From Candidatus Cloacimonadales bacterium (GTDB lineage Bacteria > Cloacimonadota > Cloacimonadia > Cloacimonadales > JAFGVF01): DNA of 64,000 nt. Shown piece after piece: positions 28,079 to 37,564 of the stretch. The DNA is taken from positions 1,472,001 through 1,536,000 of the forward strand of contig OY762964.1 of NCBI GenBank assembly GCA_963667035.1. Reading direction: 5' to 3'. Made by a program: the position numbers and the translations under genes. The notes under the pieces were generated by a model, which saw only the letters and a list, made by a program, of their open reading frames with translations, was not told where the DNA came from and searched no databases. Numbering within the stretch: position 1 is the stretch's first letter; the number at the start of each line of letters is the position of its first letter.

Positions 28079-28566
28079 TGTTTATCTTAATTCTAGTTGC
28101 ATCTTTAATTCTGTTTTTTTTCGTCACCAATACTATCAGTTATAGAATACTTAAGAACAAAATCTTAAAAAGCAGAAAATGGGATTTGAACATCTGTTGC
28201 GGTAAAACTGATGGAGGTGGAGTTAATGCTGATATTGTTAAACATATAGAATTACCGAATTATATACAGATAAATGATATAACTAATCTTCCGTTTAAGA
28301 ATAAGCAGTTTAAACATGTCTTATGCTCTCATACAATTGAGCATGTTGATAATCCGATTGCTTTCTACAACGAGCTTCAAAGAGTAGGAGAAAATGTGGT
28401 GATAGTTGTTCCGCCTTTATGGGACATAACAGCAGCTTTTAACATCATAGAGCATAAGTGGTTATTCCTAACTATGAGACCAAATCACCTCAAGCTTCCT
28501 TTTCATGTGAGATTACCAATTGCACATAAACTACAATCAATCTGGGGTCAGAAGATTAAAGCTTAG
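28078..28566 (+). CDS. Class I SAM methyltransferase-like protein with N-terminal TM
   Basis: LNICCG, DITNLPFKNKQF, SHTIEHVDNP. Confidence 0.7.
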   Translation: MFILILVASLILFFFVTNTISYRILKNKILKSRKWDLNICCGKTDGGGVNADIVKHIELPNYIQINDITNLPFKNKQFKHVLCSHTIEHVDNPIAFYNELQRVGENVVIVVPPLWDITAAFNIIEHKWLFLTMRPNHLKLPFHVRLPIAHKLQSIWGQKIKA

Positions 28567-29428
28567 TTTTTGTTATCCGTATTGAATCATACGGATTATC
28601 CAGATCAAAAGAGATAACACACGCTTCATCTCTTTCCGAAGCACCCTGAAAAGCCAGATTATCTCCAATCGTATCAGTGTATTCGCCGGTTATTCGAGTT
28701 GATTCGTGAACGTGTCCATGCATTGTAAGATAGAACTTTCGGTTTTCTAACAACCTTTTCAAAGCTATTGAGCCTATGTTAACATCTAGTGGAGCATAAT
28801 CAATCATCTTTCCATCTAAATCAGCTCTATCAAGCTTAGTTTGATAAGGTGGTGTATGTGAAAGCAATATAGTTCTTTCTGTGGCACATGAATCGAATAA
28901 TTCTTCAAAGTCTTCCTTAATTGTTGTATACTTCAGCTCATATTCAGTAATACTACTATCGTGATATCCTTGTTCAGGAGCAACACAACCCACATCAACA
29001 AATCTGGAGACATCGTATTTTTCCCAATCTTTATTCATAAATGGAGTTGGAGGTACAAAATTGTAACCTACAATTATCCAGTTTTTAAACTGTATCTTCT
29101 TTTTATGACAATAGGTAAGCAACCCCGTGAATTTGTCCCCAAGTAGTATCTCTTCTGAGATTCTGTTATCATCATTACCCATGATAACAAATATTTCAGG
29201 ATAGCACTCCCCCATCTCTTCCTTTAACTTCTGCAATTCAACCTTAAGGAATCCACAGAGAAATGAATCTGATTTCTCTGATACAGCATCACGTATACTG
29301 TTAAAAGGTAACAGTATATCTCCTCCAATAAAAACAACTTCTGGTTCTATTTCTCTAATCTTTTCAAACAGATAGTTATATTTAAACTTGTTGCCGTGTA
29401 AGTCCGAAGTAAGTAAAGCTCTTATCAT
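28556..29428 (-). CDS. Calcineurin-like metallophosphoesterase
   Basis: SDLHG, GGD, MGNDD, HTPP, HGHVHE. Confidence 0.9.
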   Translation of the reverse strand: MIRALLTSDLHGNKFKYNYLFEKIREIEPEVVFIGGDILLPFNSIRDAVSEKSDSFLCGFLKVELQKLKEEMGECYPEIFVIMGNDDNRISEEILLGDKFTGLLTYCHKKKIQFKNWIIVGYNFVPPTPFMNKDWEKYDVSRFVDVGCVAPEQGYHDSSITEYELKYTTIKEDFEELFDSCATERTILLSHTPPYQTKLDRADLDGKMIDYAPLDVNIGSIALKRLLENRKFYLTMHGHVHESTRITGEYTDTIGDNLAFQGASERDEACVISFDLDNPYDSIRITKTKL

Positions 29429-32400
29429 CTTTTAACCTTTAACAGCTTAGCTGCATCAGTTACTGCTCCAATCTTTATTGCAAAACTATCCTTCTCCAGA
29501 ATATCATGGTCGGAAATAATATGTATATCCAAAAGACCATCGGTTTTGTAACCTGTTCTCAGATAATTCATTCTAGCAAGACATTTACTCCAACCTTCAA
29601 ACCAAGCAAGTAATTGCTGCTTCTTAATCTCATTACCTCTGAAATGAACAAGTAAATCAATATCACTTCCGGGACCGGCTGTTGCATTTTTAACACTACC
29701 AAAAATATATAAATTAACAACCCCATACTTCTTAGAATCGAGTTGTAATGCTAGATATTCACTCATTTGAAGTCTCCATAACCAGTAATTGTCTGTATTC
29801 TCTTCTTCATAATATGCTTTAAGTGAACTTGTTTTTCTACCGTCAGCAACTCCAAAGTAAGCTATTGCTTGTTCCAAATCTGCATTCATGAATATCTTTA
29901 ACACATGTCCGGATGTTTCCTTTTGTACATCGAACACTTGAACGCAATTTGATAAGTATGAGTATTTTGGGAGTAAGGTTGATAAAATGTTCTCCCCTCT
30001 CACAAAGAAGTTAGTATTAAAGATATAACCTTTTTCATCCGGATAAAGTGGGATGTAGCGTATAGTAGACTCAACAAGATCTTGAAAGAAATGTGTTCCA
30101 AACGAAAGGTCGGGAGCAAAATTTGCTTGTTCCTTAGCTACTTCAATCAATGCTGATGTGTTGCTTATTTCTGAATACGACACATCGACTCCGAGTTTAA
30201 TATCTCCTTTACTACCCCATCTACCCGGACCAATAAGAATAAACTTCTTCTTAGGAAGTATTGAATTCAATTTTCCGACACAACGACCTACAGCTTTCAA
30301 GTCTTCCAAAGTCTTGAGTTTTTTATACTTTATCGGGTCTACATAAACAATATGAGTTACTTCAGGAATTATTCCATTAGAGATATGCTTCCCGGCTGTG
30401 AAAAGTATATCTTTTTCAGGTATATCCTGAGGAATAGGTGCTGGCTCTACTTCTTTAGAGAAACATTGCGGTCGACACTGAAGAAGATATATAACATCAT
30501 TAATAACAGCAAACTCGATATCTACGGGTGTTGACATTTTATCCTCCAGAACATCAAGGAGTCTCTTTATTCTGTTCATAAACTGAGTATCTGTCATTAA
30601 TGATCTGAAAGTAACAATTAGGTCATCTTTAGCAAAATCAATGTTGAATACAGCCTTCTGATGAATAAATCCATTCTCGTTAACACTGAAGATTCTATTT
30701 AGCATTGGGAAACTATCTTGAAACTTATGAAGGGCATCTTCAATCTTCATAGTCTCAAAGGTATTAGTTTCAAGATTAATCAAATCAATATGTTTGGGTG
30801 AATACTTTAGTATCTCATCAGGAGAAGCATTAACCCTAATTCCTGGTTGACCGGGAGAAGCAAGCACAGGATAATCATCACTAACTCTATCTACTGCTCT
30901 GGTACCAAGTCCGGGAACTAATCTCACTAATCCATCTTCTCTCTTTATTCTAGGAGACCATCTGAATTCATTACTTGAGAAAGCTACTCCCGCAAACGCA
31001 GGAAGATAGTAGTTTCCTACTTTTGTGCCAACAACTTCCTGAATCATTATAGCCATCTCTTCATGAAAATCTACAAGACCATGATCTTTTCTGTATTCAA
31101 TCGGGTCAGGAGCTACAATTGAAGCATAAACTTCTGCTATTGCATCCATTAAAGCACTTAATCTTTCTTTTTTATTGCCTTGATTAGCTAAAAAGAGGCT
31201 TTTATACTTACCTGAAAATGAGGTTCCAAAGCTATCTTCTAATAACGATGAACTCCTTACTATGATTGGTGAATTACCAAAAGAATCTAGAGCTTGTGCT
31301 AGTTCTTTTGCTATATCATGAGGGAAGTAAGAGTTTTTAAACATTTGCACAATATTATGATATTCTGCTCTTATCTGTTCAATGTCTTTATACTTCTGCT
31401 CAATCACTTCTTCCAGATTATTGTAATGAATGAAAGATTGCATGGCATCAGATGTTATATACCAACTTTTGGGAGTTCTAATTCCTTTCTGAAACTCTAA
31501 ATCAGTTTCGCTTTTAACTATATTATAAGCAAAAAACAGACCTGTACTCTTTCCTCCAAGTCTTCCATGAGAATTCTTTGGAGAGATTGTATGTTGGAGC
31601 ACATCATAGAAGTCCTCTATTTGAATATAATTCTTAGCTATGCGAATAAACTCTAGTTGGGAAGTGAACAAGCGTTGTATCAGAAGAACTTTTAAGTTAA
31701 GCTGAGAATATGGAGACAGGTTCTCTTTACTAATCTTTAAGTGTTGATATCTGACTATAGCATCTTGAAGCTCTGCTAATGACGTTTCTTTATCTTCAAG
31801 TGCAGTTATCAGAAAGCTAAGTTTATCTTCTTGTATCCATTTATGTATGTACTCAAGAACTTCTTCATTAGGTAAACAACATTCTGCAATTTCAAAGACC
31901 TTATGACTCACCGCTTCCATATCCAGGTATTCTTGTTTTTTTAAAGGTTTATTAGCATCTAGTATATCCTCCGTATCTGATTCTGATCTGGTTATACCTG
32001 CTGAGTAATAAATCTCTTTTACTTCTTGAATACCCCTCTGATATAAAAGATTAATGAGTTTTCGAGCTATTTTCAAAGATAAACGGTAATCAGTATCCTG
32101 TAACATCTTAAGTACTATTTTCCAGTCTTTATGTTCCATTTCGGATCTGGAATCTGATGACTCTAAATTCTTCGTGAACGACCTTACTAATAAGTACGTG
32201 GAAAGCATTTCCGCTAAAGTTCCAAGTAATGAAACCTCTTCATCTAGAAATGGACTGGATTCAAAATCATTAGGAACTTGAGAGTAGTATACTTTTATCT
32301 CACCAAAGTATTGGTCATTCATACTTAACGCTCTTTGTTGAGAATACTTTGGAATTGCATCTTTTTTCAGAGAGTATATCGTACCCATGTATTCAATTTC

Positions 32401-32583
32401 TGCGAAACATGATTCAGTAAACTGCCATCCGGCAGGTATAATCTCAAGTATCTTTTCAAAGATAATCACTAAATCTTGAGTATAATCGGAAGTTATCTCA
32501 ATCATTTTATGAATACAAGCTAACTCTTTACGTCTCTCAGTAAGTTGTAATTGTAACTGATTATTGTTCCCGCCATAACTCAT
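29425..32583 (-). CDS. Multidomain protein: sensor-like N-terminus + PEP/pyruvate-binding (PPDK_N) domain + C-terminal nucleotidyltransferase
   Basis: ERRKELAC..IPAGWQF; GGKS, VRSSSLLEDS..SFSGKY, PVDIEFA..LLQCRP, SFGTHFF; FGSVKNATAGPGSDIDL (GS..DxD). Confidence 0.85.
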   Translation of the reverse strand: MSYGGNNNQLQLQLTERRKELACIHKMIEITSDYTQDLVIIFEKILEIIPAGWQFTESCFAEIEYMGTIYSLKKDAIPKYSQQRALSMNDQYFGEIKVYYSQVPNDFESSPFLDEEVSLLGTLAEMLSTYLLVRSFTKNLESSDSRSEMEHKDWKIVLKMLQDTDYRLSLKIARKLINLLYQRGIQEVKEIYYSAGITRSESDTEDILDANKPLKKQEYLDMEAVSHKVFEIAECCLPNEEVLEYIHKWIQEDKLSFLITALEDKETSLAELQDAIVRYQHLKISKENLSPYSQLNLKVLLIQRLFTSQLEFIRIAKNYIQIEDFYDVLQHTISPKNSHGRLGGKSTGLFFAYNIVKSETDLEFQKGIRTPKSWYITSDAMQSFIHYNNLEEVIEQKYKDIEQIRAEYHNIVQMFKNSYFPHDIAKELAQALDSFGNSPIIVRSSSLLEDSFGTSFSGKYKSLFLANQGNKKERLSALMDAIAEVYASIVAPDPIEYRKDHGLVDFHEEMAIMIQEVVGTKVGNYYLPAFAGVAFSSNEFRWSPRIKREDGLVRLVPGLGTRAVDRVSDDYPVLASPGQPGIRVNASPDEILKYSPKHIDLINLETNTFETMKIEDALHKFQDSFPMLNRIFSVNENGFIHQKAVFNIDFAKDDLIVTFRSLMTDTQFMNRIKRLLDVLEDKMSTPVDIEFAVINDVIYLLQCRPQCFSKEVEPAPIPQDIPEKDILFTAGKHISNGIIPEVTHIVYVDPIKYKKLKTLEDLKAVGRCVGKLNSILPKKKFILIGPGRWGSKGDIKLGVDVSYSEISNTSALIEVAKEQANFAPDLSFGTHFFQDLVESTIRYIPLYPDEKGYIFNTNFFVRGENILSTLLPKYSYLSNCVQVFDVQKETSGHVLKIFMNADLEQAIAYFGVADGRKTSSLKAYYEEENTDNYWLWRLQMSEYLALQLDSKKYGVVNLYIFGSVKNATAGPGSDIDLLVHFRGNEIKKQQLLAWFEGWSKCLARMNYLRTGYKTDGLLDIHIISDHDILEKDSFAIKIGAVTDAAKLLKVKR

Positions 32584-34319
32584 TTAAGAATTACTCCTTT
32601 ACCACTTCTTCCGTCTGCAAATACTTCAATTGGTTTATCAAGTCTAACATGGAGTAGATGCTCGGTTTCATTTATTACTTCGTGCTTGCGTAACCATTCC
32701 CAGTCTATTTTTTTACTCATCTCAATATCTGCTGAAAAATATATCACATTATGAGCTGTCATATTATGGAAGAAGTGAGAACCTTGACTAAAGTCAAATC
32801 GCATTTCAGGTAACACTGCTTCAATTATCACTTTTGCTCCCGAAATCTGTGACCATTTAATCGGTATACCCATCCATGGGTCTGATGTACCCCACCTTCC
32901 GAATCCCATAAGAGCATAGCATTTCTTATCTTTCAGTAACTCAGCATTTATCTCGGCAATATCCATTGCTACTTCCATAGATGCTTTAGGATTGAAATCC
33001 TCCGGTTTAACAAATACTATATCACAAATATCATCAATATGTGCATTACCCATAACTTGTTCAGACTTGATTAGCACATCATTACTATTCATTAAGTCAT
33101 CGGTTATATCAACAATCTTGTCACTGATACTAATTGGTCTTAACTGTAAGAATCCAAATCTTGGTTTATCTATGTTCTCGGGATCAATAGTCATAGCAAA
33201 TTCAATCTCTACTTTATTACCGGTCTCTTCTTCACATACTTTCATTAGTTCTTTAATCAGAGGATTTAACGGTATGGTATCCAATCTAAGAATTGGTGCA
33301 AAATCCACAATCCTAGAACCGCTATATGATGTTCCGATAGTTATTCTATCATTCAAGCTATCAAAAGTTGAGCATATCTGCTTTAGTGTGCCATGTTCTT
33401 CCGCATCATATATTGATTTATAACATAAATACTCTGTTTCCTGAATTGGATCATAGCAACATACCTGTGCCAGATTAATAGCCCAAAACTCAGTTTGTGT
33501 GTATTTCAGTATATCATGGTTATTGTTAAACGGTGGTGGAGCTGTAGGATGCATTGGAGAGTAACTCCATGATTTTTCTCCTTCTACGACAGCTTTTCCT
33601 AATCCAAGAGCAAGAGTTGCTATACCCTCTTCATGTGTTGCATTGTTTGTAGGATAGAAGTTATAAGATTTCACAACACCAGAGATTGTTGGATAGAATA
33701 AATCTCCATGTTTACTTCCTAGTACTTCTTGAATAATGATTGCCATTCTTTCTTCTCTGATATCTCTATTAAGTGACTTAAAATACTCTTTAGAATTCTC
33801 AAAGAATAATGAAGCATATACAAATTTTATTGCTTCCATGAGAACTCGAAATCTTTGATCCTTATCTATTTGATTATTAGGAATCATCTTGGTTTCATAA
33901 ACTCCGGCAAAAGGATCATCTATTGAGTCCTCAAAAATACTTGAAGATCTAATTGCTAGAGGTTGGTTTATACTCTCGATAATACTCCTTAAGTCTCCGG
34001 AGTATATCGCACCTAAAGATGCTCTCTGGAAAGCTAATGATATATCTACGTCACTGGCATCGGATAACGCAATTTCATAAAGGTCATTAGATTCCATGAA
34101 ATCTTCAAAAACACCACTTAAAAGTACTGTCATACTGGGTATATTTATTTTTATACCCTCATAATCATCATTAGGGAATCTTTTTTTTAGCACATCTTGC
34201 ATAAAGGCTAACCCTGAAGCTTTGCCTCCGGGTTCTCCTCTTCCTATATAATTAAATCTATCTGAAAAGAAACCGCTTATTCTATCAAATCTTTGTCCCG
34301 ATTTCATGTTTTTATTCAT
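32580..34319 (-). CDS. PEP/pyruvate-binding (PPDK_N) domain protein
   Basis: GGKASGL, IRSSSIFEDS..FAGVY, GLGKAVVEG, VEIEFA..LQLRP, SQGSHFF. ATG 34319 overlaps the gdh stop (TAATG). Confidence 0.85.
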   Translation of the reverse strand: MNKNMKSGQRFDRISGFFSDRFNYIGRGEPGGKASGLAFMQDVLKKRFPNDDYEGIKINIPSMTVLLSGVFEDFMESNDLYEIALSDASDVDISLAFQRASLGAIYSGDLRSIIESINQPLAIRSSSIFEDSIDDPFAGVYETKMIPNNQIDKDQRFRVLMEAIKFVYASLFFENSKEYFKSLNRDIREERMAIIIQEVLGSKHGDLFYPTISGVVKSYNFYPTNNATHEEGIATLALGLGKAVVEGEKSWSYSPMHPTAPPPFNNNHDILKYTQTEFWAINLAQVCCYDPIQETEYLCYKSIYDAEEHGTLKQICSTFDSLNDRITIGTSYSGSRIVDFAPILRLDTIPLNPLIKELMKVCEEETGNKVEIEFAMTIDPENIDKPRFGFLQLRPISISDKIVDITDDLMNSNDVLIKSEQVMGNAHIDDICDIVFVKPEDFNPKASMEVAMDIAEINAELLKDKKCYALMGFGRWGTSDPWMGIPIKWSQISGAKVIIEAVLPEMRFDFSQGSHFFHNMTAHNVIYFSADIEMSKKIDWEWLRKHEVINETEHLLHVRLDKPIEVFADGRSGKGVILK

Positions 34320-35602
34320 TAGATCCAACCCCTTTCTTGCGATGCTCTAACAACTCTGTCTACGGCTATCATATAAGCGGCATCTCTCATATACAAATTC
34401 TTGCGTCTAGCTAATTCGGAAATTCTATGATATGCTCTGGTTAGCTTTATATCAAGTTTACTAATAACTTCATCTTTCGACCAATAATAGTTCATATTTG
34501 ATTGAACTTGTTCAAAGTAACTGCAAGTAACACCTCCGGCATTACAAATCACATCAGGAATAACAAATATATCCTTTTTTCTTAGAATCTCATCAGCTCG
34601 TGGACTAGTCGGACCATTTGCTCCTTCAGCAATTATCTTCACTTTTGGATGTATTAAGTCAACGTTATCTCTAGTTATCTGATGTTCCAACGCTGCCGGA
34701 ACAAGAATATCACACTCCTGTTCAATCCATTTATCTCCATCATTTAACTCATATCCTAATTCTTCAGCTTGTTTTGAATCTATACTTCCGAATCTATCAG
34801 TTATTTTCTGTAATTCGGATAGATTTATGCCATCAGGTCTAGTATAAAGAATTGAACTGTTTGTTTGGGGATTCCACGAAGAGACACCCATTACTGTACC
34901 ACCTAGTTGGTTGTATAAACTGATTGCGTGTTGAGCAACATTTCCAAAACCTTGAAATACAGCAGTTGTTCTATCGGGGCGTAACTTTAACTCTCTCAAA
35001 GCTTCACGGACAGTAAACATTAATCCATATCCGGTAGCTTCAGTTCTACCTAAAGAACCTCCAAGTTCTACCGGCTTACCTGTTATCATTCCCGGCATTC
35101 TGCATCCGTGCATAGTTTCATATTCATCCAAAATCCAAAGCATATGCTGACTATATGTCATAATATCCGGTGCCGGAATATCTCTCAAGGGTCCGATGTT
35201 ATCACCTAACTGTCTTACCCAACCTCTGCATATTAACTCTTGTTCTCGATATGACAATTGGTGAGTATCACAAATAACTCCTCCGTATCCTCCTCCTAAG
35301 GGAAGATCTACAACTGATGTCTTCCAGGTCATCCACATAGCCAATGCTCGAACTAAATCAACTGTCTCTAAGGGATGAAATCTCACTCCACCCTTGGCGG
35401 GACCTAGAGCATCATTATGTTGAATTCGAAAACCTTTAAAAACTTTTGTAGTTCCATCATCCATTTTGACAGGTATTAAGAAATGATACTCCCTGAGCGG
35501 ATTTCTTAAGAAATCTTTAGCTGCTTGATTTAGATCTAGTTTATTTGCTATTAAGTCAAATTGCTTCTGCACCATCTCAAAAGCATTAAATGTTTCGCTC
35601 AT
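34319..35602 (-). CDS. Glu/Leu/Phe/Val dehydrogenase homolog with catalytic Lys replaced by Tyr
   Basis: GPAKGGVRFHP, MTWK, GGGYGG, PAPD, GRTEATG, QGFGNV, EGANGP, NAGGV.SYFE; GAGGTG RBS before ATG 35602. Confidence 0.9.
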   Translation of the reverse strand: MSETFNAFEMVQKQFDLIANKLDLNQAAKDFLRNPLREYHFLIPVKMDDGTTKVFKGFRIQHNDALGPAKGGVRFHPLETVDLVRALAMWMTWKTSVVDLPLGGGYGGVICDTHQLSYREQELICRGWVRQLGDNIGPLRDIPAPDIMTYSQHMLWILDEYETMHGCRMPGMITGKPVELGGSLGRTEATGYGLMFTVREALRELKLRPDRTTAVFQGFGNVAQHAISLYNQLGGTVMGVSSWNPQTNSSILYTRPDGINLSELQKITDRFGSIDSKQAEELGYELNDGDKWIEQECDILVPAALEHQITRDNVDLIHPKVKIIAEGANGPTSPRADEILRKKDIFVIPDVICNAGGVTCSYFEQVQSNMNYYWSKDEVISKLDIKLTRAYHRISELARRKNLYMRDAAYMIAVDRVVRASQERGWI

Positions 35603-35888
35603 AGTCACCTCACTGTTATTGTATAGATTTGGTAATCTATATTTTTGCAATTGTTTTTATCCAATGCAAGGAAAATCTCTTAAAAAAGAAATTATAGCAC
35701 TTTTTCTATCTATTAATATCTCTAATAGCTAAACTCAAAACTTGATTATGTACACATTTATTGTCTACCCTTCATTATCTTTTTTTCTATTTTATTCTTT
35801 TTGTGTTTCAGTCTTTTTTCTTTTACAGTAAACATTATTTCTTGACGCTAAGTAATTATCTATAAATAAATACACTAGGAGGATTAAA

Positions 35889-36374
35889 ATGAATAGAGTT
35901 ATTATTTTAATATTGTTAACTTTCTTACTACTTGGCTGTGTTGATTCAACAAGAAATTGGGAACCTAATGGACCTGTATCAAGAGATTTAATTGATTTCG
36001 TTGCGAGAGCAAAAACTGAGATTGAGAGGGATGGGATAAATGCCTTTCATGCTTTTCGCTCAGACAATAAGTGGATTGAAGACGACAAGTACATATTCGT
36101 TTGGAATATGGAAGGTATTCGATTCGTTTACCCTCCTGATCCTGCAGGTGAGGGTAAGTTGATGCTGAATCTAAAGGATAGTGAAGATAAACCTATTGGC
36201 ATGGAATTCATACAGATCGCTCAACAAGGTGGTGGTTGGGTTCATTATAAGTGGCCTAAGTTAGGTGACACAGAGCCTGAATGGAAATCAACCTATATTC
36301 TTCCCGTAACAACACCAAGTGGGTCTAAATTCTTAGTAGGAAGCGGAGTTTACGGACTTAGAGTTGATAAATAG
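35889..36374 (+). CDS. Stand-alone Cache-domain lipoprotein
   Basis: Lipobox LLGC, YIFVW, LKDSEDK, GGGWVHYKWPK, VGSGVY. Confidence 0.82.
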   Translation: MNRVIILILLTFLLLGCVDSTRNWEPNGPVSRDLIDFVARAKTEIERDGINAFHAFRSDNKWIEDDKYIFVWNMEGIRFVYPPDPAGEGKLMLNLKDSEDKPIGMEFIQIAQQGGGWVHYKWPKLGDTEPEWKSTYILPVTTPSGSKFLVGSGVYGLRVDK

Positions 36375-37009: not shown

Positions 37010-37564
37010 CTAATCACTTTCTCCCTTTCCCTCGGTTCTTCCATTATTTCTGATGTATTCAATAGTAGCTTGGAAATGCTTATCATTTCTGATATATCTA
37101 TCGTAGTAATCATTCATCCAAAACTTACCCTTTCTACCTAATATCTTATTTGCTTTATTAGCTGTATAGGATTTCCACGAATGTATTATCTTTGATAAAC
37201 TATGATTTGGGTTTACTTTGATTAAAACATGTACATGATTTGGCATTACAATCCACTCAATTAAATCATATCTTTCCTTATGATGAAACATTAGTGCATC
37301 TTCTACTATCTTCTTAACAGTCTTATTATTAAGAAAGCAACTTCCATGTCCTTTATCTAAATACTTAGCTATTTTTGTGTGAAGTTTTATATATTCATCA
37401 GTATCTTTTTTATTATCATCTGTAATGCCTAACTCATCTTGCCAGTTTATTATTAACTCTTTCGGTACAGAATCATACAAACGGAAAGTAATGAATTGAT
37501 ATACTTCATCACCGTCATAGTGACTTAAATATCCTCGAGAATGCCAACCTTTTAATTCATCCAT
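37010..37564 (-). mobile_element. REP-associated tyrosine transposase (RAYT)
   Basis: GWHSRGYL, FITFRLYDSVP, VMPNHVH (HUH), WKSYTA, FW..YYDRYIR, catalytic YIRNN. Confidence 0.92.

Follow-up and report, generated by a model that had tools for sequence, protein, structure and literature searches.

A glutamate dehydrogenase homologue with tyrosine at the catalytic lysine position in a conserved dikinase-like gene cassette of Cloacimonadales

The locus and its GDH-like gene

The stretch of DNA analyzed here (the window) comprises 64,000 nucleotides from a Candidatus Cloacimonadales bacterium (assembly GCA_963667035.1, contig OY762964.1, positions 1,472,001 to 1,536,000) and carries a gene for a glutamate dehydrogenase (GDH) homologue in which a tyrosine, Tyr106, occupies the position of the catalytic lysine. 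GDHs occupy the point where carbon and nitrogen metabolism meet. A four-gene cassette begins with this gene, which is followed by genes for a PPDK_N protein (the “582-aa protein”), a sensor-PPDK_N-nucleotidyltransferase (NTase) protein (the “1052-aa protein”), and a metallophosphoesterase (Table 1). The three junctions overlap by 1, 4, and 4 nucleotides, the GDH stop codon and the next ATG being merged in TAATG, and the four genes are translationally coupled.

The GDH open reading frame (ORF; 34319..35650, minus strand) is unbroken, and translation probably begins with the ATG at 35602, with GAGGTG four bases upstream, which yields the length given in Table 1. Between 35340 and 35240, the minus strand includes CCC TTA GGA GGA GGA TAC GGA GGA GTT, translated as P-L-G-G-G-Y-G-G-V. 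A first-pass annotation, made from the sequence alone, had reported an unbroken ORF with the motif GGGYGG and TAC as its tyrosine codon, and reading of the sequence confirms this. Both domains of the ELFV superfamily were found in the protein, namely the N-terminal dimerization/substrate domain (ELFV_dehydrog_N, PF02812; E = 2.7e-48, 163.4 bits) and the C-terminal NAD(P) domain (ELFV_dehydrog, PF00208; E = 3e-67, 227.3 bits). The best NCBIfam model is GdhA_Arch with 446.8 bits, below the equivalog cut-off of 750, which may reflect the subfamily and not the tyrosine.

In alignments, Tyr106 falls on Lys105 of the GDHs of Pyrococcus furiosus (1GTM) and Thermococcus profundus (1EUZ), and the protein therefore lacks the lysine expected of a competent GDH. 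The substrate-binding residues K70, K94, and S361 and the catalytic D146 are kept (alignment columns KK-Y-DS). The first-pass annotation had described the remaining motifs as intact, and all those it listed are present (AKGGVRF, WMTWK, IPAPD, GRTEATG, and GFGNV), but the NAD domain is not fully canonical: the dinucleotide motif GFGNVA is kept, yet the cofactor domain carries D244N/Q245P. These two columns hold D and Q in 35 of 36 lysine-bearing relatives, and the D244N/Q245P pair occurs only in the window and in one other genome of the genus (G001).

Table 1. Features of the cassette locus, with positions counted from the first letter of the window.
Feature	Position	Strand	Length	Basis
GDH homologue, Pyrococcus/Thermococcus type, Tyr106 replacing the catalytic Lys	34319..35602	-	427 aa + stop	
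TAC codon for Tyr106, at the catalytic-Lys position of GG(G/S/A)KGG	35285..35287	-		sequence reading
PPDK_N (ATP-grasp) dikinase-like protein (“582-aa”)	32580..34319	-	579 aa from ATG 34319	Pfam PPDK_N 2.6e-28
Sensor-like/helical/PPDK_N/GTHFF/NTP_transf_2 protein	29425..32583	-	1052 aa	PPDK_N 3.6e-64, NTP_transf_2 4.9e-08
Calcineurin-like metallophosphoesterase, last cassette gene	28556..29428	-		Pfam Metallophos 7.3e-09
Small stand-alone single-Cache protein, upstream of GDH	35889-36374	+		signal-peptide-like N-terminus
IS200-like Y1 transposase, upstream of GDH	37010-37564	-		

Tyrosine is fixed in one genus

The replacement of lysine by tyrosine is neither a sequencing artefact nor a private change. 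Contigs of three public DNA sequencing runs (one sample, possibly the source of the window itself) are identical to the window over 35100-35450, and the lysine codons AAA or AAG, which the first-pass annotation had named as the reads that would speak against its claim, do not appear at this codon. No RNA run is listed among the public runs that carry the window sequence. The catalytic column of the best 120 homologues reads GG[GS]KGG in 116 and GGGYGG in four, these four being the window's own protein and three others with 86%, 83%, and 77% identity to it.

Among 61 related genomes searched, 20 have the GDH gene: all four genomes of the window's genus (g1) and 16 genomes from other families of the order; the eight genomes of the family's other two genera yielded no such gene. 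Tyrosine is present in the window's genome (G000), G001, and G003, and lysine in the 16 genomes from other families. The gene of the fourth genome of the genus, G002, ends at a contig edge, and its remaining 262 residues are 100% identical to a tyrosine-bearing metagenome protein (P0046), so that tyrosine can be assigned to all four species of the genus. The four tyrosine proteins form one clade with a support of 100 in a tree of 99 sequences, nested among lysine-bearing Cloacimonadales orthologues, which answers the earlier question of whether a tyrosine clade exists. A metagenome scan recovered no additional member of this clade. In the window, the tyrosine is encoded by TAC, whereas G001 and G003 use TAT; sister lineages have AAA or AAG, and the flanking glycine codons vary at third positions between the tyrosine species. 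The earlier judgment that a sequencing error is unlikely is thus borne out by tyrosine in three other species, with TAT in the two whose DNA was read. A change from lysine to tyrosine takes two base changes, for which a stop-free route leads via asparagine, and three metagenome orthologues of other lineages have asparagine at the catalytic site.

Selection on the tyrosine-bearing gene

The three full-length tyrosine-bearing genes differ by pairwise nonsynonymous divergences (dN) of 0.098-0.127, and their synonymous divergence (dS) is saturated beyond the Nei-Gojobori correction, such that no ratio of the two (omega) could be computed. Where dS was estimable, in two pairs that include the G002 fragment, omega is 0.086 and 0.089. 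The combination of dN near 0.1, saturated dS, and omega near 0.09 therefore points to purifying selection on the gene and on its tyrosine, and argues against a plain pseudogene. The genus thus holds a natural replacement of the catalytic lysine that is fixed and selected throughout.

Constraint nevertheless appears to have been somewhat relaxed, in part and mildly, after the change to tyrosine. Between the window and G001, the divergence of GDH divided by that of the 1052-aa protein is 1.09 (about 1.8 times faster), whereas the same ratio in 406 pairs of lysine-bearing loci has a median of 0.60 and a maximum of 0.86, with none reaching 1.0. At nearly invariant columns, defined as those conserved in at least 94% of 36 lysine-bearing sequences, the window protein deviates 13 times, that of G001 11 times, and the other two tyrosine proteins 8 times each, compared with a leave-one-out median of two deviating columns in the lysine-bearing sequences, 34 of 36 of which have five or fewer. 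Most of these changes in the tyrosine clade are conservative, and of the 170 columns with a conservation of 95% or more, the two closest tyrosine species differ at only 4. The alternative that the first-pass annotation had itself raised, a change private to one strain under relaxed selection, stands only in its second half, because mild relaxation is seen but the change is shared by four species.

Recurrent loss of the catalytic lysine

The same lysine was replaced independently at least six times in this GDH subfamily. Among 110 GDH-like ORFs from fetched loci, the catalytic column holds K in 99, M in four, Y in three, Q and T in one each, and a gap in two; the methionine cases come from three Chloroflexota loci and one unclassified metagenome-assembled genome (MAG), and the glutamine and threonine cases from Bacteroidota. 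The 80 metagenome loci hold K in 71, M in four, N in three, and S in one, with one unreadable. Among 150 representatives of 50%-identity clusters, the best of 13,367 matches, K was found in 138, M in four, a gap in two, and V, H, R, F, C, and Y in one each. A FastTree tree of 170 sequences requires at least six changes between lysine and other residues, with an ORF filter having dropped eight of the 80 metagenome loci, including two with asparagine, one with serine, and one with methionine.

Lineages without the lysine lie on long branches (0.81 for L068, 0.53 for L067, 0.38 for the Chloroflexota stem, and 0.19 for the tyrosine stem), and those other than the tyrosine clade have also lost pocket residues (e.g., K94R and K70M). 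The methionine lineage persists in three related genomes. A second tyrosine lineage is represented by P0216, which is 39% identical to the query and has tyrosine both at the catalytic lysine and at the K70 position. Its GDH-like gene (L111:3167-4411, plus strand) is oriented divergently from an adjacent small metallophosphoesterase-like ORF (L111:2495-3046, minus strand; DTHDN...HCGD, identified by eye). Four Bacteroidota cassette GDHs (L010, L013, L014, and L059) keep the lysine and have PAPE for PAPD, i.e., glutamate for the catalytic aspartate.

A conserved cassette of dikinase-like proteins

The four-gene unit adjoins the lysine-bearing GDH in all five Cloacimonadales loci examined, and the 1052-aa gene occurs in 21 of the 61 relatives, including 20 of the 20 GDH-positive genomes. 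In other phyla, 55 of 79 loci have at least one of the two dikinase-like genes next to GDH, several of the remaining 24 being too short to judge; the same is true of 53 of 80 metagenome loci. According to record titles, the hosts of linked loci include Ignavibacteriota, Calditrichota, Bacteroidota, Chloroflexota, Planctomycetota, Acidobacteriota, Gemmatimonadota, Zixibacteria, Thermoplasmatota, and others; metallophosphoesterase orthologues are also found beside the cassette in other phyla. The loss of the catalytic lysine is a recurrent event within one GDH subfamily that mostly travels with an uncharacterized cassette across many phyla, archaea included. This context, a conserved cassette together with repeated independent lysine loss, is the most informative one and was missed by the first-pass annotation. 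A literature search that covered few subscription journals returned no description of the cassette or of natural GDHs without the lysine, and PADLOC, run on the four cassette proteins, gave only weak MNT-like and phosphoesterase candidate-model matches and no defense system.

The model of the 582-aa protein has a predicted local distance difference test (pLDDT) score of 88.5, and its best Foldseek match is rifampin phosphotransferase (5hv1, E = 7.8e-14), accompanied by HpeI, phosphoenolpyruvate (PEP) synthase, and pyruvate phosphate dikinase. HpeI and rifampin phosphotransferase phosphorylate hydroxyl groups of small molecules. The C-terminal module common to the two dikinase-like proteins contains the invariant motif G-[ST]-H-F-F (G-S-H-F-F in the 582-aa protein), the histidine of which is a possible phospho-carrier. 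In the 1052-aa protein, H831 and the NTase signature GS...DID (G962-S963...D974-I975-D976) are invariant in 36 orthologues, and the N-terminal ~130 residues share homology with the sensor region of a histidine kinase that is linked to the cassette in relatives. Pfam searches at E ≤ 1 gave nothing for the N-terminus or inter-domain region of the 1052-aa protein or for the C-terminus of the 582-aa protein. The sequences of the two dikinase-like neighbors, searched against the PDB, returned only weak matches to PEP synthase, and a protein atlas placed the neighbors in unnamed “PEP/pyruvate-binding” clusters.

Complex prediction weakly supports an association of GDH with the 582-aa protein, with a score of 0.41 (runs of 0.39, 0.43, and 0.41), compared with 0.00 for the best of three controls; at least 88% of contacts are common to the runs, and the partner has a pLDDT of at least 83. 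Of 157 solved complexes, 116 pass the mark set for this score, as do 2 of 215 mismatched pairs, but scores of 0.60 or lower comprise only 18 of the passing solved complexes and both of the mismatches that passed.

Several variants of the cassette and its GDH were encountered. In lysine-bearing Cloacimonadales (L104:4902-7734, plus strand; also L105, L106, L109, and L110), a histidine kinase and a sigma-54 NtrC-type regulator lie directly beside GDH. This pair is not beside GDH in the window or in G001, and a search of the G000 and G001 genomes found no full-length orthologue of the kinase. In an Ignavibacteria MAG (L006:2799-7751, plus strand), the 582-type and 1052-type genes read as one 1651-aa ORF, which may be a natural fusion of the dikinase-like proteins or the product of a lost stop codon or an assembly error. 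The 10 longest representatives include no fusion of GDH with a cassette domain. Two of the 50%-cluster representatives are GDH fusions: P0183 joins GDH to an N-terminal response-regulator receiver, and P0148 joins it to a CTP_transf_1 cytidylyltransferase domain. A class-I GDH lies directly beside the cassette in eight loci (L011, L012, L015, L039, L055, L062, L063, and L068) from Bacteroidota, Chloroflexota, Acidobacteriota, Thermoplasmatota, and one unclassified MAG, such that these cassettes carry two different types of GDH; the cassette's own GDH lacks the lysine in four of them (L012, L015, L063, and L068) and has it in the other four.

Other GDHs in the genome

A whole-genome search found only two further ELFV genes, which are 34% and 31% identical to the cassette GDH. 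Both are of class I (Escherichia coli/Clostridium type), encode 453 and 485 aa, and have the motif GGGKGG; they lie at 842 kb and 1.96 Mb on the same contig as the cassette GDH at 1.506 Mb (~660 and 460 kb from it, respectively). Canonical GDH capacity is accordingly present elsewhere in the genome, which settles the earlier suggestion to look for a second, canonical gdh. The same search found no catalytic paralogue of the Pyrococcus type, either adjoining the gene or elsewhere in the genome. The class-I gene near 842 kb (~841-844 kb; L003:1273-2730, plus strand) is directly preceded by an ORF (L003:1-1017, plus strand) with the sigma-54 activator AAA+ signature GETGTGKE.

Comparison with known systems

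To our knowledge, inactive regulatory subunits with a GDH fold are known from very few systems, of which GdhA of Thermus is the clearest. The closest solved structures to the window GDH are those of P. furiosus (1GTM) and T. profundus (1EUZ), which align with it over their full length (E = 5e-119 and 1.5e-118, respectively) and share its two domains. A paper on the T. profundus enzyme describes a pocket of Lys69, Lys93, Lys105, Ser351, and Arg187 with a water molecule beside Lys105 (PMC12001156), and equivalents of Lys69, Lys93, Ser351, and Arg187 are present in the window GDH. The differences lie in Lys105, which is tyrosine here, and in the surroundings of the gene, which sits in an operon with dikinase, nucleotidyltransferase, and phosphoesterase genes.

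GdhA of Thermus thermophilus is described as the catalytically inactive regulatory subunit of a GdhA/GdhB heterohexamer (3AOE; PMC9570180). It belongs to the same subfamily as the window GDH (E = 5e-94 and 7e-61 for the 3aoe chains) and is likened to it through this described inactivity, and by analogy the window GDH may work most like this regulatory subunit among known systems. GdhA, however, shares its hexamer with a catalytic paralogue of the same type, and the window GDH is not of the GdhA type because its genome has no such paralogue.

The first-pass annotation had taken the catalytic lysine to form the Schiff base. This is not the current view: a review describes the equivalent Lys80 of leucine dehydrogenase as a general base, and the K80A, K80Q, and K80R mutants as having ~1.5% of wild-type deamination activity, or 20% with 1 M ammonia (PMC12018205). 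In the T. profundus GDH, Lys105 has a water molecule next to it. The leucine dehydrogenase mutants resemble the window protein in that the equivalent ELFV lysine is replaced, and differ in being engineered, none of these three being a change to tyrosine, whereas the window's change is a natural one to tyrosine. Since the Lys80 mutants keep ~1.5% activity, Tyr106 most likely leaves a strongly impaired but not necessarily dead enzyme. A precedent for dikinase relatives that control metabolism is VadK (Rv1127c), a PPDK-derived kinase described as regulating a metabolic pathway (PMC13400623); its organism, pathway, and domain set are unlike those of the cassette.

Proposed role of the tyrosine-bearing GDH

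With a probability of roughly 0.5, the window GDH may be a crippled but still ligand-binding enzyme that is retained for a non-catalytic role in the cassette. This interpretation is favored because the gene is under strong purifying selection, the substrate pocket is intact, other GDHs are encoded elsewhere in the genome, and the lysine has been lost recurrently in a subfamily that is mostly linked to the cassette. The replacement of lysine by tyrosine would remove most or all GDH activity, while the protein would probably still bind glutamate and 2-oxoglutarate, and probably the nicotinamide cofactor. Its most likely task would be to bind metabolites as a partner or scaffold of the cassette enzymes and so to link them to the state of the glutamate, 2-oxoglutarate, and NAD(P)H pool, and bulk GDH chemistry would be carried out by the two class-I enzymes. 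Judging from side-chain geometry, the replacements look pocket-preserving and charge-removing, as tyrosine has about the reach of lysine and methionine and glutamine are long and uncharged. The first-pass annotation had likewise proposed a pseudoenzyme that serves as a ligand sensor or regulatory subunit; fixation in the clade, purifying selection, canonical gdh genes elsewhere, and the kept substrate residues are in line with that proposal, whereas the analogy with Thermus GdhA on which it leaned breaks down at a defining point, the lack of a same-type paralogue. If a non-catalytic role is confirmed, it would offer a clue to what a widespread cassette does, and the natural “dead” variants, paired with their lysine-bearing orthologues, could be used to dissect that function.

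A further-reaching possibility, which we hold only tentatively, is that the GDH hexamer forms the metabolite-sensing core of a signaling or covalent-modification system, in which the histidine-relay dikinase-like enzymes, the nucleotidyltransferase, and the phosphoesterase would take part. Catalysis would be dispensable in such a system, and different lineages, with tyrosine here and methionine, glutamine, asparagine, serine, or threonine elsewhere, may time and again have turned the enzyme into a mere receptor of glutamate, 2-oxoglutarate, or NAD(P)H; in the tyrosine clade, nature would then have set sensing apart from catalysis, as in an experiment.

Several observations weigh against a retained non-catalytic role. 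Lysine loss was seen in 13 of 120 cassette-linked and in 0 of 18 unlinked orthologues, a difference that is not significant among rows that are kin and that does not show the loss to be specific to cassette-linked GDHs. No cassette is present on the short (5.9-kb) contig that carries the independent tyrosine lineage P0216. The predicted association of GDH with the 582-aa protein scores in the weak range, and since the function of the cassette is uncharacterized, a partner role lacks defined biochemical content. Residual GDH activity could also persist, as related lysine mutants are impaired (~1.5%) and not dead, and the hydroxyl group of the tyrosine could in principle assume an acid/base role. 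A reading that we regard as unlikely is that the protein is a working oxidoreductase with altered chemistry, either a slow GDH that uses the tyrosine hydroxyl or a nearby lysine, or a tyrosine-dependent 2-oxoacid reductase that converts 2-oxoglutarate to 2-hydroxyglutarate. In short-chain and aldo-keto reductases, a tyrosine is the proton donor to the carbonyl. Strong purifying selection has preserved all residues that bind the carboxylates, together with Asp146 and the GFGNVA dinucleotide fold; tyrosine is kept in four species despite synonymous turnover, and the tyrosine clade, unlike the methionine and threonine lineages, has not lost other pocket residues; the activity left in the leucine dehydrogenase mutants fits as well. 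On the other hand, the same lysine became methionine, glutamine, asparagine, serine, or threonine elsewhere, residues with no common catalytic chemistry, the cofactor domain of the window's lineage carries D244N/Q245P, and the rate of GDH relative to its cassette partner is raised. No precedent for such an activity turned up, although no literature search was aimed at it.

Early decay of a gene that is dispensable given the class-I GDHs, and that persists through its embedding in the operon, is quite improbable. It would account for the rate ratio of 1.09 against at most 0.86 in the lysine-bearing pairs, for progressive change at nearly invariant columns with the window protein as the most derived, and for the flanking histidine kinase and sigma-54 regulator of lysine-bearing relatives not being found beside the gene, or full-length, in G000 and G001. 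It accords poorly with a reading frame that is unbroken in three species and also in a fourth protein, which comes from a metagenome, with dN near 0.1 at saturated dS and omega near 0.09, with just 4 differences at 170 highly conserved columns between the two closest tyrosine species, and with the retention of tyrosine in all four species, just as the methionine lineage persists in three genomes. Least probable is that Tyr106 is an acceptor of covalent modification, through AMPylation by the NTP_transf_2 domain or phosphorylation by a dikinase-like protein, reversed by the metallophosphoesterase. In MNT antitoxin systems, the acceptor residue on the HEPN partner is a tyrosine. The cassette does encode an MNT-type nucleotidyltransferase with an invariant GS...DID signature, MNT antitoxins are reported to adenylylate their HEPN partner (PMC7641770), and HpeI and rifampin phosphotransferase are among the structures that the 582-aa protein matches. 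The cassette enzymes, however, cannot depend on Tyr106, since most lineages have lysine there and others have methionine, glutamine, asparagine, serine, or threonine, and, judged by its homologues, the residue sits on the floor of the active-site cleft. Nucleotidylation of this tyrosine, which the first-pass annotation had itself offered as speculation, is for these reasons disfavored.

The region upstream of the GDH gene

A scan of the operon for sigma-70 promoters and terminators gave matches at or below the level of shuffled sequences. Upstream of the GDH gene, TGG-N12-TTGCA was noticed by eye, with a spacing that is wrong for sigma-54. The single-Cache protein and the Y1 transposase encoded further upstream (Table 1) were not matched by tblastn in the 19-kb G001 locus, and the region upstream of the window GDH accordingly appears to be rearranged.

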